The notes beneath the pieces were generated by a model. The model did not search any database and was not told the origin of the DNA. It worked only from the letters and a program-made list of their open reading frames with translations. DNA of 56,484 nucleotides. Source: Alphaproteobacteria bacterium UBA6187 (lineage in GTDB: Bacteria > Pseudomonadota > Alphaproteobacteria > Rickettsiales > UBA6187). Location of the stretch: contig DITJ01000091.1 in assembly GCA_002422795.1 (NCBI GenBank), forward strand, positions 1 to 56,484. The letters run 5' to 3'. The translations under genes and the position numbers were made by a program. This document shows, in pieces, positions 102 through 56,408 of the stretch (its first letter is position 1; every line of letters starts with the position of its first letter).

Positions 102-437
102 TTAATAAACGCTCAGCCCAAGCTGCAACTTTATAGCCCTTTCAATATCGGATATTTCAATATTTGTTAGTGAAGTGATTTTATCTTTAATTCTTAACTT
201 GCTTACAGTGGTAAGCTGGTCAGCCATTGCTTTGGCTTTTTTTGAGCCAATGAAAACCATAGTTTCTGTAGGATAAATTTTCTCAGTATTACTGGTTACA
301 GGCACAACCTGCACGCGGTTAGCATAGCGGTTATTAGCATTATTACTAATAACAACTGCTGGCCTAATTTTAGTTATTTCCCCACCAATTGAAGGATCAA
401 AATTCACCCAGTAAACGTCGCCACGCTTTAATTCCAT
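102..437 (-). CDS. mazF: Type II toxin, MazF/PemK-family endoribonuclease
   Basis: 111-aa ORF. The N-terminus KRGDVYWVNFDPSIGGEITKIRPAVVISN matches the PemK/MazF signature. Its ATG overlaps the stop of the upstream small ORF (TAATG). Confidence 0.85.
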   Translation of the reverse strand: MELKRGDVYWVNFDPSIGGEITKIRPAVVISNNANNRYANRVQVVPVTSNTEKIYPTETMVFIGSKKAKAMADQLTTVSKLRIKDKITSLTNIEISDIERAIKLQLGLSVY

Positions 438-2395: not shown

Positions 2396-3325
2396 CTAAA
2401 CCAACTTCTCGATTTCAGGAATTGATGTAAATAAATCCGCAACCAAACCATAATCAGCTACTTCAAAAATCGGAGCGTTTTCATCCTTATTAATGGCAAC
2501 GATGATTTTGCTGTCTTTCATGCCTGCTAAATGCTGGATAGCACCGGAAATTCCCACTGCAATATATAATTCAGGCGCAACAATTTTGCCGGTTTGCCCA
2601 ACCTGGTAATCATTGGAAATATAGCCCGCATCAACTGCCGCGCGGGATGCGCCAATTGCGCAATCATTAATTTTAGCAGCCAGCGATTCCAATATTTTGA
2701 AATTATCTTTGCTACCTAAGCCGCGCCCGCCGGAAATTACCACCCTTGCGCTGGAAAGATCAGGCCCTTTTGCAGCCGCCCCTTCATTCCTTACGAAAGA
2801 TACTGAATTAGTTGCACCTTTGCCGCTAATATTTTCCACCGCTGCATTTCCACCAAGTTCTGCTTTTGCAAATTTAGTGGTGCGGATGGTCATGATTTTT
2901 ATTTTATCAAGCGATTGTACCGTGGCTATTGCATTGCCTGCATATATCGGGCGCTTGAAACTATCTGGTGATATAATTTCCATAACATCAGTGATTTGCG
3001 CCACATCTAGGATAGCCGCCACGCGCGGCAGAAAATTCTTACCAAACGTATTTGAAGGGGCAAGAATATACGAATAATTCACCCCTAATTCTATAACCAG
3101 GGAAGCAATATTTTCTGCCAGGAAATGTTCATATGCAGAATCATCAGCACTTAAAACTTTTGTAACGCCGGAGATTTTAGCAGCCTCTTGTGCAGCACCG
3201 CTACAGTCTTTCCCCGCAACCAGAATGTGAATTTCTCCACCGATTTTCTTTGCCGCTTCCACTGTGTTTAATGTGGATGGGCTTATTGCGGTGTGGTTAT
3301 GTTCGGCTATTACTAGTATTGTCAT
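2396..3325 (-). CDS. etfA: Electron transfer flavoprotein alpha subunit
   Basis: 309 aa. C-terminal FAD-binding block [23 protein letters not shown]. Lies downstream of etfB. Confidence 0.95.
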
Positions 3326-4231: not shown

Positions 4232-4244
4232 TTTTAACCTTTTT

Positions 4245-4313
4245 AGAGTTCAGAGTTCGGAGTTCAGAGTTCAGTAATTAAAGAAGTATACTGAACTCTG
4301 AACTCCGAACTCT
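4245..4313. repeat. Heptamer-arm hairpin, gagttca family
   Basis: The arm agagttc agagttc ggagttc agagttc ag pairs with ctgaactctgaactccgaactct across a 16-nt AT-rich loop. Confidence 0.85.
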
Positions 4314-4318
4314 GACCA

Positions 4319-4504
4319 CTATCTTTTCACATAAAAATACATAAACGCAAGCATTATTATCGCCAAAAACTGGAACACAACACGCGCTATCATAAGCTTG
4401 TTGCTATATTTTTTATTTATTTTCCCACCCTTGGCAAGAACGAAGATACCTGCAATAAGGATTAAAATGGTGATAAATATAAGTATCAGTGGGATTGTTT
4501 GCAT
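4319..4504 (-). CDS. Twin-transmembrane-helix small protein (HIG1-domain-like)
   Basis: 61 aa with two hydrophobic helices separated by a basic loop (KGGKINKKYSNKLM). This is the usual alphaproteobacterial small-protein architecture. Confidence 0.6.
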   Translation of the reverse strand: MQTIPLILIFITILILIAGIFVLAKGGKINKKYSNKLMIARVVFQFLAIIMLAFMYFYVKR

Positions 4505-4540: not shown

Positions 4541-4702
4541 TTGTATAGGTTGCTTAAAGTGCAACGTCATTGCGAGGAGTCGGCCTCTTGGGAGTACGAC
4601 GTGGCAATCCATCGCATCGATGTTGCTAACACTGGATCGCCACTTCGTGCTCGCTTCGCTTCGACTCATCGCGATGACGTTGCACTTTAAGTAACCAATT
4701 AC
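4541..4702. repeat. Multi-hairpin palindromic element, gtcat...atgac family
   Basis: Outer inverted repeat ttgtataggttgcttaaagtgcaacgtcat / atgacgttgcactttaagtaaccaattacaa. Inner pair gacgtggcaatcca / tggatcgccac. It creates a spurious 65-aa ORF. Confidence 0.8.
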
Positions 4703-5904: not shown

Positions 5905-5921
5905 TAAAAAAGAAATATGTA

Positions 5922-6084
5922 TATACTCATTCTGTCTCAAACTACCGATTATAATGCCTCGTCTTTATTTGTTATATAAAAAAATTAAATCTTTGAAATA
6001 GAGCCGCTATTACTTCAGATTTAACTTTTCCCTATAACAAAAAATACTTGATTCTAATAGGCAGTTTGAAACAGAATGAGTATA
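5922..6084. mobile_element. MITE-like element, full-length copy (tatactcattct termini)
   Basis: 163 bp with terminal inverted repeats tatactcattctgtctcaaactaccgatt / ggcagtttgaaacagaatgagtata. It is near-identical to the reverse complement of 36283-36445. Confidence 0.85.
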
Positions 6085-9066: not shown

Positions 9067-10473
9067 TTAAGCTACACAAAGCTCAACATCATGCTCACGC
9101 AGCTCTTTGCTTTTTACGCCCAGGCTTTTTAATTTCCTGTGGAATGCAGAGCGCTCCATCCCTACAAATGTTGCAGTTTTAGATACATTACCGCCAAATC
9201 TTTCTAACTGCGTTGTAAGATATTCTTTTTCAAATAATTCCCGTGCATCCTTAAGCTGCAAACCCATTATATCCGCGCCAGCACCAAATCCTGATGCCAT
9301 CGGGTTAGATGATAATAATTCAGGAGGGAGCATGTTAGAGGTAATCTGGTTGCCTCCTTCATCATTAGTCATTATAAGCAGCCACTCAACTACATTCCGA
9401 AGCTGCCTTATGTTCCCCGGCCATGAATATACTTCCATTGCCGCTATAGCACTTTCGTTTAATTCCCTTTGCGGTACAGAAAGGTTTTCCGCATATTTTT
9501 TGATAAAATAATTAGCAAGCGGCAAAATATCGCCTTTACGCTCTTTTAGTGATGGCACTTTAAGGGGAACTACATTCAGGCGATAAAACAAATCTTCCCT
9601 GAAACGTCCTGCGGATATTTCATTTTGCAGGTTCTTATTTGTGGAAGCAATTATCCTTACATCAACATTTACACGTTTATTCCCGCCAACCCTTTCAAAA
9701 CTGTTTTCCTGTAATATACGAAGGATTTTCCCTTGCGTACCAAGAGGCATATCGGCCACCTCATCAAGGAATAATGTGCCGCCATGTGCACGCTCTAAGG
9801 TTCCGGTTTTACCCTCCCCGCCTGCGCTATATTCTTTTCCGAATAATTCCTCTTCAACTTTATCCTGCGATATACTGGAGGCATTAAGTATTACAAACGG
9901 CCCGGCATGTCGTTTTGATTTCTGGTGTATAAGCCTGGCTACCATTTCCTTACCACAACCGGCAGCACCATTCAGCATGATCCGGCTTTCTGTAGGGGCC
10001 ACTTTTTCTATAGCCTGGCGCAGCGCGAGAACAGCGTGGGATTCGCCAATCAGGTGATTTTCATATACACCTTTTTTTAATTCTTCATTTTCATTTTTTA
10101 ATTTTGCAGTTTCTACAGCGCGTTTTACAAGCCTTAATATCCTATCTTCCTTAAAGGGCTTTTCTATATAGTCATACGCGCCAAGCCGGATAGAATGTAT
10201 CGCCGTTTCTATATTGCCGTGACCGCTTATCATGATAACAGGTAAATTCGGGTATCTTTTCTTTACAGCCTCAAGTATACCAAGCCCATCCATATCGCTG
10301 CCTTGCAGCCATATATCCAGCACAACAACCGCCGGCACACGCTCTCTTATCGCCTCAATAGCGCCTGTGCTATCACTTGCTACCCTTGGGTTATAACCTT
10401 CATCACGCAATATATCCGATATAAGGTCCCTTATATCCTGCTCATCATCTACTATAAGTACATCAAGTGACAT
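9067..10473 (-). CDS. ntrX: NtrX-type response regulator (receiver + AAA+ + HTH)
   Basis: Receiver domain (DDEQDIRD...VLDIWL), AAA+ Walker A GAAGCGKE, C-terminal Fis-type HTH. Sits downstream of ntrY. Confidence 0.85.
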   Translation of the reverse strand: MSLDVLIVDDEQDIRDLISDILRDEGYNPRVASDSTGAIEAIRERVPAVVVLDIWLQGSDMDGLGILEAVKKRYPNLPVIMISGHGNIETAIHSIRLGAYDYIEKPFKEDRILRLVKRAVETAKLKNENEELKKGVYENHLIGESHAVLALRQAIEKVAPTESRIMLNGAAGCGKEMVARLIHQKSKRHAGPFVILNASSISQDKVEEELFGKEYSAGGEGKTGTLERAHGGTLFLDEVADMPLGTQGKILRILQENSFERVGGNKRVNVDVRIIASTNKNLQNEISAGRFREDLFYRLNVVPLKVPSLKERKGDILPLANYFIKKYAENLSVPQRELNESAIAAMEVYSWPGNIRQLRNVVEWLLIMTNDEGGNQITSNMLPPELLSSNPMASGFGAGADIMGLQLKDARELFEKEYLTTQLERFGGNVSKTATFVGMERSAFHRKLKSLGVKSKELREHDVELCVA

Positions 10474-10510
10474 AAGTTATATCCTAAAGTTAAGTTCTGG
10501 GATAAGATAA

Positions 10511-10591
10511 TTTAAGATTTAAGATTGTAAATTTAATATTTGAATATGGCTTCTTCTTTAAATCTTAAATCTACAATCTTAAATCTTAAAT
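10511..10591. repeat. Heptamer-arm hairpin, taagatt family
   Basis: tttaaga tttaaga ttgtaaa tttaa pairs with tttaaatcttaaatctacaatcttaaatcttaaat. Lies between the ntrY stop and the ntrX start. Confidence 0.85.
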
Positions 10592-12469: not shown

Positions 12470-12594
12470 GTCATCCTGAACTAGTTTCAGGATCCATCTA
12501 GCAAAGTAATAGAAGACAGATTTGTATGCAACCACTTAATAAAAAGTTCTTTCTTTGTATTTCAAAATGGATCCTGAAATAAATTCAGTATGAC
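12470..12594. repeat. Palindromic element, gtcat...atgac family
   Basis: gtcatcctgaactagtttcaggatccat ... atggatcctgaaataaattcagtatgac. Overlaps the false 5' extension of ntrY. Confidence 0.7.
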
Positions 12595-13570: not shown

Positions 13571-13573
13571 ATT

Positions 13574-13708
13574 AGAGTTCAGAGTCCCAAGTTCAGAGTT
13601 CAGAATATAGTGTAAAAACTTAACCATTAAAAATATTGCTACCTATACTCGTTACGTTATATATACTAATTATTGTATTTTTACAACTGAACTCTGAACT
13701 CTGAACTC
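13574..13708. repeat. Heptamer-arm hairpin, gagttca family
   Basis: agagttc agagtcc caagttc agagttc ag pairs with ctgaactctgaactctgaactc across an ~83-nt AT-rich loop. Lies in the divergent dusB/ispDF region. Confidence 0.8.
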
Positions 13709-13720
13709 CGGCAACTAAAC

Positions 13721-15031
13721 ATGAACCAATACAACACCATCTGCCTTATAGTCGCAGCCGGAAGCGGGGCAAGGCTTGGAAATGAAATTCCAAAGCAATA
13801 TCTTATGCTTGGCAATAAACCAATACTCAGGCATTCCGCAGAAGCATTCCTGAATCATCCGCAAATTGATGCAGTTTGCGTTATTTATAACCCAGCCCAT
13901 CAAGAATTTTATGATAATGCGGTAGGGGATTTAAACTTATACCGAGTTGCATTCAAAGAACGAGTAGGAGTGCTAGGCGAGGAGGGCGCAAGCGTAGGCT
14001 TACTACGTGCGCACCGACAAGACCGCTGCACGACAACCTCTTTCAAAGAATGCAACTCGGTATTACTCCCTCCGGTTGCGGGAGGCGCTACCAGGCAGGA
14101 ATCCTCCCGCCTTGGGATTGAGGCAATTGCAAAACATAACCCAAAAAAAGTGCTGATACACGACGGTGCGCGCCCATTTGTAGATAGCCGCATTATAACT
14201 GATATAATAAATGCACTTGATGAAACATGCGCCGCCATCCCTGCCCTGCCTGTGGAAGATACTATTAAGGAAATAGAAAATGGCAGGATTATAAAAACTA
14301 TTCCAAGGGAAAATTTGTTCCGGGCGCAGACTCCGCAGGGGTTTGTATATAGCGAAGTTAGAAGTGGCGAGCATACTTCTAACTTCTCACTCCTAACTTC
14401 TCACTTCACCGATGATGCCTCCATATTCGAACACTTACAAAAAGAAGTCCGCATCATTCCAGGCTCACAAAACAACTTTAAAATCACCACCACAGAAGAT
14501 TTACAAAGGGGAGAAATTCTTATGTCACAAAATGTTGAGACAAGAGTAGGAATGGGTTTTGATGCCCATAAATTCTGCGAACCAAAAATGGATGAAAATA
14601 ACTTCATAATGCTTTGCGGAGTGGCAGTTCCACATGATAAAAGCCTGGAGGGGCATTCCGATGCTGATGTTGGACTGCATGCGGCGGTGGACGCAATACT
14701 CGGCGCAATCGCAGCAGGCGATATAGGCACGCATTTCCCGCCAAGCGATATGCAGTGGAAAGGCGCTGATTCCAGTATTTTTCTAGCACATGCCGCTAAA
14801 CTTTTAAAAGAACGTGGTGGAGAAATTATTAATATTGATATAACCATTATTTGTGAAAGACCAAAAATATTACCGCACCGCGATAAAATGTGTGGGACAA
14901 TTGCAAAAATACTTGGTATTGAGCAATCACGTGTTAGTGTTAAAGCTACTACTACTGAAGGAATGGGCTTTACCGGGCGGAAAGAGGGAATTGCCGCGCA
15001 GGCAATTGTTAGTATAAGGATTAAGGAATAA
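13721..15031 (+). CDS. ispDF: Bifunctional MEP cytidylyltransferase / MEcPP synthase, carrying an in-frame palindromic insert
   Basis: IspD motifs (VAAGSGARLG, GGATRQES) and IspF motifs (RVGMGFDAHKF, GHSDADVGLHA). A ~41-aa insert is encoded by a palindromic repeat at 13939-14063. Confidence 0.9.
   Translation: MNQYNTICLIVAAGSGARLGNEIPKQYLMLGNKPILRHSAEAFLNHPQIDAVCVIYNPAHQEFYDNAVGDLNLYRVAFKERVGVLGEEGASVGLLRAHRQDRCTTTSFKECNSVLLPPVAGGATRQESSRLGIEAIAKHNPKKVLIHDGARPFVDSRIITDIINALDETCAAIPALPVEDTIKEIENGRIIKTIPRENLFRAQTPQGFVYSEVRSGEHTSNFSLLTSHFTDDASIFEHLQKEVRIIPGSQNNFKITTTEDLQRGEILMSQNVETRVGMGFDAHKFCEPKMDENNFIMLCGVAVPHDKSLEGHSDADVGLHAAVDAILGAIAAGDIGTHFPPSDMQWKGADSSIFLAHAAKLLKERGGEIINIDITIICERPKILPHRDKMCGTIAKILGIEQSRVSVKATTTEGMGFTGRKEGIAAQAIVSIRIKE
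13939..14063. repeat. RPE-like palindromic element, copy 1 (in frame within ispDF)
   Basis: Outer inverted repeat ataccgagttgcattc / gaatgcaactcggtat, core taggagtgctaggcgaggagggcgcaagcgtagg, central hairpin cgtag-gctta-ctacg. No stop codon in the host frame. Confidence 0.85.
14354..14407. repeat. Heptamer-arm hairpin inside the ispD coding region
   Basis: gaagttagaag-tggcgagcata-cttctaacttc, extended by the 7-mers cttctca ctcctaa cttctca cttc. Confidence 0.6.
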
Positions 15032-16445: not shown

Positions 16446-16796
16446 ATGCCAAATGTTCTGCGTCATAGGAAGCGGGAAGATTTTTTAAGGGTAAGGAACG
16501 CTAATAAAAGCGTTTCTGCCGCAGGTCTGGTGCTGCAGGTTGCAACCAGCAATATAGATGACGCCTCATCTATAAGGGTTGGCTTTACAGCAACTTCCAA
16601 AATCGGCAATGCAGTAGTAAGAAACCGCATTAAAAGAAGATTACGCGCCGTTGTGCGTGAGGTCATGGGCAAATCTGCTATTCCTGCACATGATTATGTT
16701 ATTATCGGCAGGTTTCGCACCGCAGACCGAGAATTTACCAGCCTGGTAAAAGATTTAAAATACGCACTCCATAATACAGGCACTTTTAAAAAGTAA
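16446..16796 (+). CDS. rnpA: RNase P protein component
   Basis: 116 aa, basic, VRNRIKRRLR motif. Conserved position after rpmH. Confidence 0.85.
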   Translation: MPNVLRHRKREDFLRVRNANKSVSAAGLVLQVATSNIDDASSIRVGFTATSKIGNAVVRNRIKRRLRAVVREVMGKSAIPAHDYVIIGRFRTADREFTSLVKDLKYALHNTGTFKK

Positions 16797-16856
16797 GATT
16801 TAAGATTGTAGATTTAAGATTTAAAATCTTCAATCTTAAATCTACAATCTTAAATC
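16794..16856. repeat. Heptamer-arm hairpin, taagatt family
   Basis: taagatt taagatt gtagatt taagatt taaa pairs with aatcttaaatctacaatcttaaatc. Lies between the rnpA stop and the yidD start. Confidence 0.85.
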
Positions 16857-16867
16857 AGCATAATCCC

Positions 16868-17113
16868 ATGTTTGCAAAACTAGCCATAATCCTGATAAAT
16901 ATCTACAGATACTGCATTTCCCCGCTCAATCCTCCCTGCTGCCGCTATGTCCCGACATGTTCGGAATATGCAATTGATGCCTTTAAGCGTTATAACCTTG
17001 CAAAAGCTGTATTTTTGACTATAAAGCGCATAGGCAGTTGTAATCCGTGGGGCGGAAGCGGTTTTGACCCAGTTCCGGAAAAACCTGTAAAAAACAAAGA
17101 CGAAGCGTTGTAA
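16868..17113 (+). CDS. yidD: Membrane protein insertion efficiency factor
   Basis: 81 aa. YRYCISP...CRYVPTCSEYA signature. Confidence 0.9.
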   Translation: MFAKLAIILINIYRYCISPLNPPCCRYVPTCSEYAIDAFKRYNLAKAVFLTIKRIGSCNPWGGSGFDPVPEKPVKNKDEAL

Positions 17114-17127
17114 TCGACAGTTTTAAT

Positions 17128-17140
17128 AAGAATGAGTATA
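17128..17140. repeat. Solo MITE terminus
   Basis: aagaatgagtata two nt before the yidC ATG. Matches the right terminus of the MITE family. Confidence 0.4.
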
Positions 17141-18898: not shown

Positions 18899-20521
18899 CT
18901 ACAACCCAAACCCGCTGGTAATCGGGTATCGCCTGTCACGCCCGAATGCAAGTGCGGTAATTTTAGTTCCGGGGGCGGCCTGCTTTCTTTTATACTCGGA
19001 AAGCCTTACCATACGCGCTACTTTTTTAACAATATCCGGTGCAAAGCCGCTATGGGCAATATCTTCCGAAGATTGCCGCAGTTCTATCAGCCTGTGCAAT
19101 ATTTTATCCAATATTTCATAAGGCGGCAATGTGTCTTCATCCTTCTGGTCTGGTCTTAGCTCTGCAGTTGGGGCTTTTGTGATGATGTTTTCAGGTATCA
19201 CTGCGCTTTGCAGGTTGCGCCAGTGGCTTAAATGAAATACATCAGTTTTATATACATCTTTCAGTACATTAAACCCACCGCACATATCGCCATAAAGCGT
19301 TGCGTAACCTACCGCCATTTCAGATTTATTGCCGGTGGTTAGCACCATTTGCCCGAATTTATTGCTTATCGCCATTAAAATATCACCACGGATGCGCGAT
19401 TGCAGGTTTTCCTCGGTTGTGTCTGGCTTTGTATTTTTGAAACTATCGTGAAGGGTTGCAGAGAAACTATCCACAATATCCCTTATTGGAATATTCTCTA
19501 AATGCACGCCCAGCAAAGCAGCGCAATCCTGTGCATCCTGTAAACTTTCAGCAGATGTATATTTTGAAGGCATCATGATAAGGCGTACATTTCCTGCGCC
19601 CAGCGCATCAACTGCAATAGCGGCAGAAAGGGCGGAATCTATACCACCAGACATGCCGATTACCACCCCCGGAAAGCCATTTTTCTTTACATAATCAGTA
19701 AGGCTAAGGGTTAGTGCGTGATAAATAGCGGCATGTTTATCATACCCGATTGTAACTTCCCCAGGCTGGCAGTGCCATATATGGTTTTTGTGCCAGTACG
19801 ATATTGCCACATCTTCAGCAAAATGCGGCATAGTAAATAGAATATCGCCTTTTTCGGATAATATAAAAGAGCCGCCATCAAAAACCAGTTCATCCTGGCC
19901 GCCAATCTGGTTAAGATATATTATCGGCAAATCAGTATCTTCTACATTCTGCCGGGCGTGAAGCAGCCTTTTATTATGTTTATCCTGCTCAAAAGGTGAG
20001 GCATTAATGCTTATAAGTAGCTCTGCACCAAGATTTTTAAGGTGTGTGCTGGTGGTATCATTCCACATTTCCTCACAAATCAAAACACCAAGCTTTATTC
20101 CCCGAAATTCCAACGGCTCAGGCAGGCAGGCGGTGTGGAATATCCTTTTTTCGTCAAATACTCCATAATTTGGCAGGTCAGATTTACAGGAAATATGCTT
20201 TATCTCCCCGCCATCAAGTAGAATTGCTGCGTTATATAAATGCTCCCCTTCCCGCCACGGGCTGCCGATTAATATTGCTGTACCATTTTTTGTAAGCGGT
20301 TCTAATTTGCGTACTATTTCCATTGCTTTTTCCTGGAAATCTTTACGCAAAATTAAATCTTCCGGGGGGTAGCCAGTAACAGCAAGTTCTGAAAAAACCA
20401 CTAAATCGGCATGTTGTTCATGTGCATTTTTATGCGCAGCTACGATTTTATTATAATTGCCATCCAAATCACCAACGGTGAGGTTTAGCTGGGCAAGTGC
20501 TATAATCAGTTTTTTTTGCAT
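18899..20521 (-). CDS. nadE: Glutamine-dependent NAD+ synthetase
   Basis: N-terminal CN-hydrolase domain (IALAQLN...VFSELAVTGY...ICEEMW) plus an NAD-synthase domain (GMSGGIDSALSA). The tracked ORF begins at a TTG (20566). I prefer the ATG at MQKKLIIALAQ. Confidence 0.88.
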   Translation of the reverse strand: MQKKLIIALAQLNLTVGDLDGNYNKIVAAHKNAHEQHADLVVFSELAVTGYPPEDLILRKDFQEKAMEIVRKLEPLTKNGTAILIGSPWREGEHLYNAAILLDGGEIKHISCKSDLPNYGVFDEKRIFHTACLPEPLEFRGIKLGVLICEEMWNDTTSTHLKNLGAELLISINASPFEQDKHNKRLLHARQNVEDTDLPIIYLNQIGGQDELVFDGGSFILSEKGDILFTMPHFAEDVAISYWHKNHIWHCQPGEVTIGYDKHAAIYHALTLSLTDYVKKNGFPGVVIGMSGGIDSALSAAIAVDALGAGNVRLIMMPSKYTSAESLQDAQDCAALLGVHLENIPIRDIVDSFSATLHDSFKNTKPDTTEENLQSRIRGDILMAISNKFGQMVLTTGNKSEMAVGYATLYGDMCGGFNVLKDVYKTDVFHLSHWRNLQSAVIPENIITKAPTAELRPDQKDEDTLPPYEILDKILHRLIELRQSSEDIAHSGFAPDIVKKVARMVRLSEYKRKQAAPGTKITALAFGRDRRYPITSGFGL

Positions 20522-21847: not shown

Positions 21848-21884
21848 AATCTTCTTTCTTATAAGAAAACTTTTCGATATTATA

Positions 21885-21925
21885 TATACTCATCCTGACT
21901 CAAACTGACGATTAGAATGAGTATA
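21885..21925. mobile_element. Collapsed mini-copy of the MITE family
   Basis: tatactcatcctgactcaaactgacgattagaatgagtata: both termini are present and the ~120-bp interior is missing. Confidence 0.7.
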
Positions 21926-21949
21926 GTTTATTCCAACTAAGGTATAGTA

Positions 21950-26891: not shown

Positions 26892-27145
26892 ATGATTATA
26901 GTGTTTTCGCTTTTCAATAATGATAGGAAATCGAGTCGATGTGTAGGTGAGCTACATGAGACGATGATCGACGCATCATTATTGAAAATGGGAAATACTA
27001 TATTTATTAACTGGTTCTTTGGCAATTACAGTACGTATTACGTCCAAAACTCAGGTGAAATAATCTATATCTCTACATATACATTACATCTTAACCAATT
27101 ATTAATATATTCGCAGTAGAATGTGATAAATATTGAGGGGTTAGT

Positions 27146-36282: not shown

Positions 36283-36445
36283 TATACTCATTCTGTTTCA
36301 AACTGCCGATTAGAATCAAGTATTTTTTGTTATAGGAAAAAGTTAAATCTGAAGTAATAGTGGCCCTATTTCAAAGATTTAACTTTTTTATATAACAAAT
36401 AAAGACGAGGCATTATAATCGGCAGTTTGAAACAGAATGAGTATA
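36283..36445. mobile_element. MITE-like element, full-length copy (inverted relative to 5922-6084)
   Basis: 163 bp with the same termini and interior as the first copy, a few mismatches by eye. Lies just upstream of the family-less ORF at 35064. Confidence 0.85.
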
Positions 36446-36523
36446 TATAAAAGATATCTAATTTTTGCAAGCCCCACGCCTCTTTGATTGGCTTCTGCTA
36501 TACATGCGGAAGTTCGTCAACCA

Positions 36524-46839: not shown

Positions 46840-46867
46840 ATAGTTCCAGTTATAATGTTTTAAGAGC

Positions 46868-47095
46868 CCGTAGCGGATTATCTGATATTGTCATTCCAGA
46901 ATTTAGAAAACATTGGATTTACGCGCTTAGTAAATCCTAGGTTTTATTAATATCTGGAATCCAGTTTCTTATAAAGAAAAGTGGTTGGATTCCAGATAGC
47001 AAGTTCGGCTAACTTCACAAAGCGGCTGAAGTAGCCGATTTGTGAAGCAGCCTCCCTAGCTTCTGGAATGACAATATCCAACAATCCACTACAGA
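46868..47095. repeat. Three-hairpin palindromic element, gtcat...atgac family
   Basis: Outer gtagcggattatctgatattgtcattccag / ctggaatgacaatatccaacaatccactac. Inner ctggaatccag / ttggattccag and cttcacaaagcggct / agccgatttgtgaag. Confidence 0.8.
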
Positions 47096-47105
47096 TTTTT
47101 AGTAT

Positions 47106-53478: not shown

Positions 53479-53560
53479 TATTCTTATTACTAAAAAAAAT
53501 ATACATTATGATGTCTTTATTGGTATTATCATACAAAGTTATATAACATAAGACCTCATT

Positions 53561-53683
53561 CATAATGAGAATTTTTTTGAGTGAGTTCTAGGAACGCCAG
53601 CCCGCAAAACCGCAATGTACATAGACGTACATGAGGATTTGAGGACGGACGTGACAACGAAATCACAAAAAAATACCATTATG
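53561..53683. repeat. RPE-like palindromic element, diverged intergenic copy
   Basis: Outer cataatgagaatttttttgagtga / tcacaaaaaaataccattatg, core ctaggaacgccagcccgcaa, central hairpin atgtac-atagac-gtacat. The architecture matches copies 1 and 2. Confidence 0.7.
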
Positions 53684-53733
53684 CAGAGGTGTTAGCATTA
53701 AATTAAACGCAATAATATAGAATCAGGAATGTT

Positions 53734-55128
53734 ATGGAACTAATTTGCAATAAAATATTTGATGAAATTAATATTGGCGATTCCGCCAGTCTTTCCCGCA
53801 CACTAAGCATGGGTGATATTACTGCTTTTGCAGCCATTACCGGTGATTATAATCCGGCGCATCTGGATGCAGAATATGCTAAAAGTGATATGTTCCACAA
53901 AATTGTAGCGCATGGCATGTGGGGCGGTTCATTATTTTCCGCCTTGCTAGGCACTGAACTTCCTGGGCCCGGGACAATTTATTTAAGCCAGACTCTAAAG
54001 TTCTTAAAACCTGTTTCCCTTGGTGACAGGATTACAGTAACTGTAACAGTTACACAGAAGAAGGCAGAAGGGCATAAAATAATATTAGATTGCGCTTGCG
54101 TGAACCAAAAGGATGATAAGGTTATAGCAGGCACCGCAGAAGTGATAGCGCCAATAGAAAAAGTCGAGTACAAGAGAGTGGCATTATCACAAGTGGAATT
54201 GCGTGAGCCGCGCCGCACTTATTATCAGCAAATAATTGATAAGAAACATGGGCTTGCACCACTTATTACCGCAGTTGTGCATCCGGTAGATAGGAATTCT
54301 CTTGAAGGCGCGATAGAGGCCGCTAAAGAAGGGTTGATTATACCAATACTTATAGGACCGGAAAATAAAATCCGCGCAGTAGCTGCGGCGGAAGGATTAG
54401 ATATTTCCCCTTATGAAATTATAGCAACTAAGCATAGTAATGCAGCAGCAGAAAAAGCCGTGGAACTTGCCCGCCAAGGTAAGGTGGAAGCTTTAATGAA
54501 AGGTAAAATCCATACGGATGAATTAATGCACCCGGTTGTAGATAGAGTAACAGGGCTTCGCACAGGCAGGCGCATGAGCCATGTTTTCATGGTGGATTCC
54601 CCCAATTATCATAAACCATTTTTCATGACAGATGCAGCAATTAACATTGCCCCCAACCTCATGGATAAAAAAGATATTACACAAAATGCGATTGATTTAT
54701 TCATAGCACTTGGACTTGGCACTCCGAAAGTTGCTATTATTTCTGCGGTAGAAACTGTAAATGAAAAAATCCCATCAACCCTGGATGCAACCGCCTTGTG
54801 TAAAATGGCAGAGCGCGGGCAGATAACCGGCGGAATCCTTGATGGCCCTCTGGCACTTGATAATGCTTTTTCTAAAGAATCTGCGGCAGCAAAAAATATA
54901 GTATCTTCCGTTGCTGGAGATGCTGATATTATCATAGTTCCGGATGTTGAATCTGGAAATATGCTATATAAGCAGCTTTCCTTTTTATCTGGTGCGGAAG
55001 CCGCAGGAATTGTGCTTGGTAGCCGGGTGCCGATTATCCTTACCAGCCGCTCCAGCAAGGTTTTAACACGCAAAGCATCCAGCGCAATTGCCCTTATTTA
55101 TGCGCGCTCTAAAAAGAAAATTGTATGA
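53734..55128 (+). CDS. pta: Bifunctional MaoC-dehydratase / phosphate acyltransferase (PTA_PTB)
   Basis: N-terminal hot-dog fold (FAAITGDYNPAHLD...VAHGM) fused to a ~300-aa PTA_PTB domain (VPIILTSRS). ATGA overlap with ackA. Confidence 0.85.
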   Translation: MELICNKIFDEINIGDSASLSRTLSMGDITAFAAITGDYNPAHLDAEYAKSDMFHKIVAHGMWGGSLFSALLGTELPGPGTIYLSQTLKFLKPVSLGDRITVTVTVTQKKAEGHKIILDCACVNQKDDKVIAGTAEVIAPIEKVEYKRVALSQVELREPRRTYYQQIIDKKHGLAPLITAVVHPVDRNSLEGAIEAAKEGLIIPILIGPENKIRAVAAAEGLDISPYEIIATKHSNAAAEKAVELARQGKVEALMKGKIHTDELMHPVVDRVTGLRTGRRMSHVFMVDSPNYHKPFFMTDAAINIAPNLMDKKDITQNAIDLFIALGLGTPKVAIISAVETVNEKIPSTLDATALCKMAERGQITGGILDGPLALDNAFSKESAAAKNIVSSVAGDADIIIVPDVESGNMLYKQLSFLSGAEAAGIVLGSRVPIILTSRSSKVLTRKASSAIALIYARSKKKIV

Positions 55129-56408
55129 AAATTATACTCACCATTAATGCAGGCTCATCCAGTATAAAATTTGCCCTATACCAATTCATTATCAAAACAA
55201 CACTAGGAGTGCAAGGCAAAGAGGGCGTAAGCGTAGTTAATCCTACGTGCGCACCGATGCGCCGCAGCACAACAACGTGTTGTGAAGATAATGGATTGGT
55301 ATTATATGAGAAGGAAGGATGCAGGCTGCTATATAATGGTTCTATAAATAATTTATTGGAAGCCCCAATATTTAAAGTGCGGGATGATAAGCACCAGAGC
55401 GTTATTGAAAAAAGCCTGCCCGGTACAGGGCATATAAGTGCCTTAGAAGCATTGGTGCAATGGATAGGGGTAAATGCTAAAGGAATAAAAATATCAGCAA
55501 TAGGCCACCGCGTTGTGCATGGCGGCAAAAGTTATTCACAGCCGGTTATAATCACACCGGAAATAGTTACGGAACTTGAAAAACTAATTCCCCTTGCGCC
55601 ACTACATCAGCCTTACAATGTGGAAGCAATAAAAATTATGATGGCTTTATTTCCTTCGGCTCCGCAAATTGCCTGTTTCGATACTGCTTTCCACAGCACT
55701 GGAAACCATCTTGCCCGGCTTTATGCCATGCCGCGCAAATATATGGAAGAAGGCATTATCCGCTATGGCTTTCACGGGCTTTCTTATGAATATATTGCAT
55801 CCATGCTGCCTGAATTTGCAGGAGAAAAAGCCGATAGTAAAGTAATAGTTGCCCATTTAGGCAATGGCTCCAGCATGTGTGCTATGTATAAGCGTAAATC
55901 TGTTGCAACCACTATGGGGTTTACAGCCCTTGAAGGGCTGGTGATGGGTACAAGGGCTGGCAGCATTGACCCTGGCATTATATTATATCTACAGCAACAC
56001 CATAAATTAAGCGTGGGTGAGGTTGAGCATTTACTTTATAAGGAATCCGGACTGCTTGGTGTATCTGGAATCAGCCATGATGTGGAAGTGCTGCAAAAAA
56101 GTGATAGCCCCAACGCCAAAGAAGCGCTGGATTTATTCTGCTACCGGGCTAGCCAGGAGCTTGCAAAGCTTGTATCATCACTGCAAGGCATTGATGTTTT
56201 GGTATTTACCGCAGGTATCGGCGAGAATTCTATTTTAATACGCAGACAAATATGTGAATTAACAGCATGGCTGGGAATCAAAATTGATGAGGACGCGAAT
56301 GCCCTGCATAAACCACAGATAAGCCTGCCGACAAGCCCTGTTGCAGTTTATGTAATTCCTACCAATGAAGAATTAATGATAGCTAAGTATGTATTAAACC
56401 TGCTTTAA
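55125..56408 (+). CDS. ackA: Acetate kinase carrying an in-frame palindromic insert
   Basis: INAGSSSIKF, GFHGLSYEY, HLGNGSS and FTAGIGENS motifs. A ~40-aa insert after the first strand is encoded by the repeat at 55181-55299. Confidence 0.9.
   Translation: MKIILTINAGSSSIKFALYQFIIKTTLGVQGKEGVSVVNPTCAPMRRSTTTCCEDNGLVLYEKEGCRLLYNGSINNLLEAPIFKVRDDKHQSVIEKSLPGTGHISALEALVQWIGVNAKGIKISAIGHRVVHGGKSYSQPVIITPEIVTELEKLIPLAPLHQPYNVEAIKIMMALFPSAPQIACFDTAFHSTGNHLARLYAMPRKYMEEGIIRYGFHGLSYEYIASMLPEFAGEKADSKVIVAHLGNGSSMCAMYKRKSVATTMGFTALEGLVMGTRAGSIDPGIILYLQQHHKLSVGEVEHLLYKESGLLGVSGISHDVEVLQKSDSPNAKEALDLFCYRASQELAKLVSSLQGIDVLVFTAGIGENSILIRRQICELTAWLGIKIDEDANALHKPQISLPTSPVAVYVIPTNEELMIAKYVLNLL
55181..55299. 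repeat. RPE-like palindromic element, copy 2 (in frame within ackA)
   Basis: Outer ccaattcattatc..caacac / gtgttgtgaagataatggattgg, core taggagtgcaaggcaaagagggcgtaagcgtag, central hairpin cgtag-ttaatc-ctacg. Confidence 0.85.

Follow-up and report, generated by a model that had tools for sequence, protein, structure and literature searches.

An in-frame palindromic repeat in ispDF and ackA of an uncultured alphaproteobacterium, resembling the Rickettsia palindromic elements

How can a gene such as ispDF carry a long palindrome in its interior and keep its reading frame open? The question arises from contig DITJ01000091.1 (assembly GCA_002422795.1) of Alphaproteobacteria bacterium UBA6187, of which we analyzed positions 1-56,484 of the forward strand, a stretch of 56,484 nt that we call the window. 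There, ispDF (13721..15031, + strand) encodes an IspD/IspF fusion of 436 aa, and a palindromic element of 123 nt (13940..14062, + strand), which starts with TACCGAG and ends with CTCGGTA, accounts for residues 74-114 of the protein (YRVAFKERVGVLGEEGASVGLLRAHRQDRCTTTSFKECNSV). We give a probability of about 80% to the interpretation that this element is one copy of a short, non-autonomous palindromic repeat, similar to the miniature inverted-repeat transposable elements (MITE), that it corresponds in kind to the Rickettsia palindromic elements (RPE), and that it belongs to a previously undescribed sequence family. The family resides in a clade of uncultured alphaproteobacteria.

The insertion in ispDF and a second copy in ackA

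An earlier inspection of this DNA, made from the letters alone (the sequence-only reading), had placed a palindrome of ~125 bp inside the ispD half of the gene and had described its inverted repeat and its apical hairpin. Both the sequence and its predicted fold agree with that description. The outer inverted repeat is perfect over 16 nt (ATACCGAGTTGCATTC / GAATGCAACTCGGTAT, spanning 13939-14063), and the apical hairpin is formed by CGTAG (13983-87) and CTACG (13993-97), with GCTTA between them. Furthermore, the element contains no stop codon in the host frame, and the ispDF open reading frame (ORF) runs through it, as had also been claimed.

The search for IspDF homologues returned thousands of proteins of about 356-422 aa. 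When the window protein was aligned with 21 orthologues (380-422 aa, the closest being 65-73% identical, depending on the measure), a block of 42 columns was filled solely by the window protein; since these columns are empty in all 21 orthologues, the net insertion is of 42 residues. After removing the block, the window protein reads AVGDLN/LLPPVAGG, which matches the orthologue consensus. The insertion itself was thus correctly recognized, and its size, proposed as about 41 residues, has to be corrected to 42, corresponding to the 123-nt unit plus one Leu codon. At the DNA level the arrangement is aac-TTA-TACCGAG...CTCGGTA-TTA-ctc, that is, the 123-nt unit and one extra TTA codon, 126 nt in total. 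The left TTA (13937..13939, + strand) encodes Leu73 and the same triplet is found again on the right (14063..14065, + strand), where it encodes Leu115; this pair may represent a 3-bp target duplication. In addition, the gene order ntrY-dus-ispDF-pgpA-cinA is common to the window and to two syntenic relatives (loci L006 and L010). The site is empty in both of them, as established at the protein level, and their BLASTN alignments stop at window positions 13933/14066. The gap with respect to orthologues therefore coincides with the boundaries of the repeat in ispDF, both in the alignment and by BLASTN, and the same holds for ackA when compared with PDB 2iir (see below).

Apart from the insert, IspDF presents the features of a complete enzyme. 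Pfam recognizes PF01128 and PF02542, PDB 1w55 is matched at E 6e-48, and all the alignment columns that are invariant among the orthologues are retained. In the AlphaFold2 model the mean pLDDT is 85.6; values below 50 are found solely at residues 76-109, within the insert, and values elsewhere are above 85, and both the adjacent helix (58-68) and the strand that runs into the GGxxRxxS motif are confidently predicted. Foldseek matched this model with 1w55/1w57, with IspD 5hs2 and with IspF 1t0a, with template modelling (TM) scores of 0.89 to IspD and 0.95 to IspF structures. The IspD structures match the model at TM 0.82-0.90 over ~267 columns, compared with targets of 220-232 residues, so that in the model the insert appears to be accommodated as extra columns. 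From general knowledge of the IspD fold, we place the insertion site at the N-terminal end of a strand that bears the cytosine-binding GG motif at its C-terminal end, and the insert would therefore presumably face away from the active site.

Two further observations concern ispDF. At 14354-14402, in the ispD part, there is a perfect 12-nt inverted repeat (GAAGTTAGAAGT / ACTTCTAACTTC, with a 9-nt loop) followed by a 14-nt tandem duplication (ACTTCTAACTTCTC / ACTCCTAACTTCTC). This region falls in a loop of widely varying length among the closest orthologues (alignment columns 262-290) and resembles heptamer-repeat DNA read in frame. In the closest species-representative genome (metagenome-assembled genome MFD06435.bin.2.166, 54% identity; locus L001, 3001-4132) the ispDF frame is broken near the same position; its longest ORF begins only at 3136 and has an unrelated N-terminal sequence. 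A frameshift, another kind of insertion or a fault in the assembly could each account for this break.

The core of the element had also been reported, in the same frame, within ackA. This gene (55125..56408, + strand) encodes a protein of 427 aa that matches Pfam Acetate_kinase and PDB 2iir (E 3e-79), and it contains at 55179..55301 (+ strand, residues 19-59) a second copy, TACCAAT...ATTGGTA, of the same type as the one in ispDF (type I, defined below). The two copies are 76% identical over 96-114 nt (BLASTN E 1e-13 to 1e-14), and they reach 121 (ackA) and 127 bits (ispDF) against R1, a covariance model of the family built from six copies. Counted from its first TA to its last, the ackA copy is likewise 123 nt long; a Leu codon adjoins it on each side, CTA (55176-78) on the left and TTA (55302-04) on the right, and it folds with a z of -8.2. 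Its orientation and its codon phase at both ends are those of the ispDF copy, which confirms the claim of a common frame, with the qualification that ~8 central codons are out of register (RAHRQDR versus TCAPMRR) because the loop is longer by 1 nt and 1 nt is deleted further on. In the alignment with 2iir, query residues 4-21 correspond to chain positions 3-20 and the match resumes with query residue 61 at chain position 18, defining an insertion of 42 residues. In terms of the ASKHA fold it is located in the first beta-hairpin, two residues ahead of the turn, and it interrupts the Pfam Acetate_kinase match at the N-terminus. Upstream of ackA, 53734-55128 encodes a phosphate acetyltransferase with an N-terminal MaoC-like dehydratase domain (PF01575 + PF01515), and the stop codon of this gene overlaps the ackA start.

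Since the source of the window is an uncultured organism and palindromes can arise in library preparation, it could be argued that the interrupted genes are pseudogenes or that the insertion is an artefact of assembly or amplification. We find this very improbable. Both ORFs are full length, without frameshift or stop, and IspDF keeps the invariant columns mentioned above. Moreover, the family is present in at least four independent datasets (Ga0206831, SRR30923180, SRR33375159 and JGI 3300032269), and artefactual palindromes copy local sequence, not a conserved foreign core. The length of the unit, a multiple of three, and its open frame suggest that the insert is retained in mRNA and protein. 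Its effect on the enzymes would be neutral or mildly harmful.

A dispersed family with a conserved hairpin and two subtypes

Further copies of the element, which the sequence-only reading had suggested looking for, were found inside and outside the window, both in intergenic regions and within genes, with a total of at least 13 copies in 5 datasets. The scan of metagenomes with the core signature recovered four contigs, all from the JGI dataset Ga0206831, each one with a near-identical copy. As judged from the relatives of its IscS, the organism of this dataset is an alphaproteobacterium. Its four copies are intergenic: they are located after a Q-rich ORF facing iscU, after lpdA facing thiD, and between tandem genes. 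One of them is enclosed by two small ORFs in tandem, possibly a toxin-antitoxin pair. The covariance model also detected a copy just past cinA in the relative L010 (12411-12543, 83 bits), one in locus L095 (277-408, 108 bits), and three more or less decayed copies in another relative, L121 (at 1955-2087, 9849-9982 and 19188-19322; the three scores, in descending order, are 50, 28 and 27 bits).

The copy of L095 was reached from the protein side. An exhaustive profile search with two insert peptides against 1.84 billion cluster representatives retrieved its product, P0121, with E 8e-7; the other match, P0122, was discarded as a spurious repeat protein. The clustering at 50% probably hides insert-bearing members in this search. 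A profile of four insert peptides against a word-indexed protein database gave no candidate sharing three 5-mers. P0121 is a prepilin-type protein in which a 42-column block, missing in 11 of the 11 closest homologues, separates the leader from SGFTLVEL; in these homologues the leader is short and terminates with SGFTLVEL. This is the third independent in-frame insertion, with the same orientation and phase as the copies of ispDF and ackA. Based on what is generally known of type IV pilin processing, the insert presumably falls within the segment that prepilin peptidase would remove. A PIN / RHH pair was observed beside the prepilin gene.

The seven intact copies are all exactly 123 nt long and have TA at both ends. 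Their most conserved part is a core of ~73 nt, which in ispDF extends over 13965..14037 (+ strand; TAGGAG...GAGGGCG.AAGCGTAG-loop-CTACGTGCGCACCGA...ACAAC, with the apical hairpin at 13983-13997) and is precisely the region spanned by the BLASTN alignment of the ispDF copy with those of Ga0206831. The core is imperfectly paired, with conserved internal loops and a purine-rich 5' arm. The outer arms of ~25 nt vary among copies yet remain complementary. As RNA, the 125 nt of the ispDF element fold with -60 kcal/mol compared with -32 +/- 3.6 in dinucleotide shuffles (z -7.9; none of 200 shuffles was as stable), and the minimum free energies of the family range from -55 to -64 kcal/mol, with z of about -8. 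Among nine copies, 94.8% of the cells form standard pairs, against 78.4% in column shuffles and 31-53% with slid partners; the alignment for this test was fitted to the covariance model, which favours structure, and the margin is large. Changes on both sides affect 28 of the 48 pairs, 21 of them in the outer helix of 27 pairs, and RNAalifold counted 19 compensatory pairs among 48 in six copies.

The hairpin is not symmetric with respect to the strands. In all nine intact members the RNA of the + strand forms a more stable fold than that of the - strand (in Ga0206831, -62 vs -35 to -46 kcal/mol) because of G.U pairs, and one G.U pair, at columns 59/76, is kept in the nine copies. This asymmetry is suggestive of a functional RNA module, a strand-specific hairpin acting in cis on mRNA stability, processing or translation. 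In that case its spread and conservation would reflect function and not selfish mobility, and the copies within genes would be either side effects that the host tolerates or insertions with a regulatory role. In addition, the core (internal loops, and a purine-rich 5' arm containing GGAG motifs) is better conserved between organisms than the arms, and six of the seven informative copies are in sense orientation with respect to the neighbouring genes. Nevertheless, such an orientation bias is not significant (p about 0.06) and we do not maintain it; the decayed, intergenic type I copy at 1955-2087 of L121 is antisense. Rfam gave no match, either at gathering thresholds or at E up to 10, and no T-run follows the hairpin, which is therefore not an intrinsic terminator. 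The contexts of the copies are unrelated, the orthologous sites in relatives are empty, and decayed and internally deleted copies exist. Finally, a single-stranded DNA intermediate of transposition fits the strand asymmetry equally well. For these reasons we consider a functional RNA module unlikely, and we favour the non-autonomous mobile repeat.

According to their arms, the copies can be divided into two subtypes. Type I (arms TACC...) comprises the copies of ispDF, ackA and L095 and the decayed copies at 1955-2087 and 19188-19322 of L121; type II (arms TAGTGTTT...) comprises the four copies of Ga0206831, the one at 26899-27000 of the window and that at 9849-9982 of L121, and the copy of L010 is related to it. 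Thus, both types coexist in the genome of the window and in L121. Read in frame 0, that is, from the first base, neither the three coding copies nor the intergenic type I copy at 1955-2087 of L121 contain a stop, whereas type II starts with TAG, itself a stop, and every type II copy has 2-4 stops in this frame. The three coding copies are all of type I, with the same orientation and phase, and the type II copies seen are all intergenic. On the reverse strand, every intact copy (ispDF, ackA, L011-L014 and L095) has one stop-free phase. A spurious-looking antisense ORF of 109 aa at 13909-14238 is partly owed to this open phase of the ispDF copy.

The type II copy of the window (26899..27000, + strand) is the third family member in this DNA and had been overlooked by the sequence-only reading. 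It presents the arms TAGTGTTT...AAATACTA, begins and ends with TA as the intact copies do, and is located between a dGTPase-like gene and a subtilase gene. The covariance model matched it at 26893-27006 with 57.5 bits (E 2e-12); its core has lost ~20 nt. By contrast, an intergenic sequence at 53561-53683, which had been proposed as a diverged copy, could not be sustained as a secure member. This hairpin (53557..53687, + strand; 123-131 nt, upstream of pta) folds with a z of -4.8. It shows no BLASTN similarity to the copies of ispDF and ackA, and its 30.7 bits with the covariance model are in the range of unrelated palindromes of the window and come mostly from structure plus CTAGGA...GACAACG. 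Besides, the 5' arm is rich in C and the 3' arm in G, a polarity opposite to that of the family, and the energy asymmetry between its strands is also reversed. It may be a separate family; no other copies of it were found among the fetched loci.

The flanks and the open frame of the coding copies also bear on another explanation, in which the hairpin is skipped and does not appear in the protein, either because ribosomes bypass it from Leu to Leu or because it is removed in the manner of an intron or an intein. The identical TTA...TTA around the ispDF copy and the two Leu codons, CTA...TTA, around the ackA copy are suggestive in this respect, as is the fact that a very stable hairpin begins right at the possible take-off codon. 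But the length of the unit is 3n, and frame 0 is open in all the type I copies, even in the intergenic one at 1955-2087 of L121; neither property would be needed for bypass or for splicing. Compared with programmed bypass elements (T4 gene 60, mitochondrial byps), the codons match in ispDF only, the prepilin of L095 has the unmatched flanks CCC/TCA, and no stop follows the putative take-off codon. The bypass gap of T4 gene 60 is 50 nt, and 123 nt far exceed the known gaps. A self-splicing intron has no support in Rfam at E up to 10; 42 residues are far below the size of an intein, and junction residues are absent. The removal of the insert from the product is thus highly improbable, and translation through the repeat remains our preferred interpretation.

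Probable mobility and likeness to known palindromic elements

If the element is indeed a non-autonomous palindromic repeat, it would spread, or would once have spread, within the clade through an enzyme acting in trans, as the distribution of the copies suggests. One type I copy would have entered ispDF and another ackA, in sense orientation and in the open phase. With a net gain of 126 nt each, the genes stay in frame and would be transcribed and translated straight through, and each enzyme would gain a tolerated loop of 42 residues between conserved secondary-structure elements. Copies that break the frame would be lost from essential genes, and the survivors would be those that keep the frame and carry no stop. 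A type I copy in sense orientation and phase 0 does both, and the three intragenic copies are so configured.

Several observations weigh against this interpretation. Neither a transposase nor a parent insertion sequence with matching ends was found by Pfam on the 40 ORFs of the window or in the fetched loci, and for this reason we infer mobility only from the distribution of the copies. The flanks are different in each case, TTA/TTA in ispDF, CTA/TTA in ackA, TA/TA in type II and CCC/TCA in L095, and we rejected a simple model of target duplication, as neither TA nor a 3-bp duplication fits all the copies. Furthermore, the middle of the element is conserved and its termini are variable, which is unusual for a MITE mobilised by a transposase that recognizes the termini, and no more than two to three copies can be seen in the 56 kb. 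Given the conserved centre and the strand asymmetry, it is conceivable that the central hairpin is recognized in the form of single-stranded DNA or RNA. A more daring proposal would be that the conserved, asymmetric ~73-nt core is a strand-specific signal, structured RNA or single-stranded DNA, with a dedicated factor, that the family has divided into a coding-competent type I (123 nt = 41 codons, with a stop-free phase) and a non-coding type II, that type I is adapted to colonise essential coding sequences, and that the hairpin modulates translation or decay of the ispDF and ackA mRNAs; we regard this as unlikely.

Is the family related to any known repeat? Two strict patterns of the core gave no match in one genome per species of 185,579 species. 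A loose pattern gave 22 matches in the same genomes, in species that are unrelated and mostly of high GC content, and all 22 were rejected by the covariance model; a single match of a viral scan was ruled out by the same model. By BLASTN there was no match in plasmids, nor, at word size 11, in 5,426 complete E. coli genomes. The sequence-only reading had compared the element with the RPEs in behaviour and not in sequence, and this comparison is supported: the element is palindromic, repeated and inserted in frame, and its core signature is absent from the species genomes, plasmids and E. coli genomes mentioned, as well as from Rfam.

PMC2229807 and PMC10969869, which summarise Ogata et al. 2000 and 2002, describe the RPEs as elements of 105-146 bp that form in-frame fusions in conserved genes and are translated in gmk. 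The family shares with them the size class (123 nt), the single long stem-loop, the occurrence of intergenic and intragenic copies, the restriction of coding competence to some subfamilies, the in-frame insertion in unrelated housekeeping genes through an open phase, and an alphaproteobacterial host. It differs in that the host is not Rickettsia, in that the centre is conserved and the arms vary with compensatory changes, and in having TA at both ends of all the intact copies, which RPEs have only sometimes. Retention in mRNA and protein has been shown for RPEs, whereas here it is deduced. We found no sequence relation, as judged by core-signature scans of a set expected to include Rickettsia and not by direct comparison with the RPE consensus. 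In-frame palindromic MITEs have been documented in Rickettsia, Wolbachia, enterobacteria, Neisseria and Coxiella (PMC2229807, PMC10969869, PMC5896051). The palindromic repeats within protein genes of Wolbachia (Ogata, Suhre and Claverie 2005, cited in PMC2229807) are the same phenomenon outside Rickettsia and in an alphaproteobacterial host of another clade; the likeness concerns the phenomenon as described.

With the MITE class in general (Correia, ERIC, RUP) the element shares its small size, the lack of a transposase gene of its own, inverted arms of ~25 bp, dispersed copies and 5'-TA-3' termini. ERIC/IRU (127 bp) and the 107-bp Correia/NEMIS (PMC2229807) are also similar in length (~107-127 bp), in their TA termini and in giving a long hairpin transcript. 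Coding and non-coding subtypes coexist in RPE families and in the 107-bp and 155-bp Correia species (PMC10969869, PMC2229807), and the coding-competent 107-bp form beside the non-coding 155-bp form is a parallel of types I and II. In contrast, ERIC and Correia have a clear TA target duplication and gamma- and betaproteobacterial hosts, and the element is not ERIC, because it is absent from the 5,426 E. coli genomes. The QMITEs of Coxiella burnetii (PMC5896051), small palindromic MITEs of an intracellular bacterium, are likewise inserted in frame in ORFs; they have a gammaproteobacterial host and are set apart in sequence here without direct comparison. The coding palindromes of the mitochondria of Nematomorpha (PMC6649704) are also long hairpin-forming inverted repeats in frame within conserved genes, but they are mitochondrial, perfect repeats of up to 284 bp, and do not constitute a dispersed family with a conserved core. 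The RAYT-associated REP/BIME elements consist of a palindrome of 20-40 bp with GTAG or CGTC at one end (PMC3733652); we discarded them because the unit is here of 123 nt and its sole GTAG is located at the apical stem, beside the loop, and not at an end.

Other repeats of the window and meaning of the family

The window is unusually rich in hairpin-forming repeats, with one in nearly every larger intergenic spacer. Intergenic heptamer palindromes, with (GAGTTCA)n facing (TGAACTC)n and (TTAAGAT)n facing (ATCTTAA)n, were observed at 4242-4321, 13573-13720, 10510-10591 and 16794-16856; one such pair encloses the spacer between dus and ispDF and extends into the dus ORF at its annotated start. A second repeat family is represented by an element of 165 nt with inverted ends (TATACTCATTCTG...CAGAATGAGTATA), with full copies at 5920-6084 and 36283-36447, which are 96% complementary to each other and 30 kb apart, and partial copies at 17088-17140, 21870-21932 and 38136-38186, all of them intergenic. 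Long intergenic palindromes of 100-240 nt, unrelated to the ispDF element, are present at 4545-4699, 12470-12594, 42137-42240, 42410-42563 and 46861-47101. At the edge of the window, 102-437 (- strand) is an ORF for a MazF/PemK-type toxin (PF02452, E 6e-26).

Taken together, the data support a new sequence family outside Rickettsia with a behaviour already known from RPEs. Of interest are a unit of exactly 41 codons, the division into an open and a closed subtype, a core that is conserved while the arms co-vary, and in-frame insertions that occurred three times independently, once in an essential isoprenoid gene. In this way, coding palindromic repeats, long treated as a peculiarity of Rickettsia, are extended to an unrelated family in a clade of uncultured alphaproteobacteria, relatives of which are found in other environmental metagenomes. 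For annotation, such inserts inflate protein lengths, break domain matches, as in the lost N-terminus of Acetate_kinase, and can lead gene callers to extend ORFs. Two patterns, the constancy of the core beside freely co-varying arms and the presence of an open subtype next to a closed one, offer a handle on recognition and on gene invasion. Furthermore, the same 41-codon module in a Rossmann-like cytidylyltransferase, in the N-terminal beta-hairpin of an ASKHA kinase and in a cleavable prepilin leader constitutes a natural experiment, useful for learning how much foreign loop a conserved fold tolerates.

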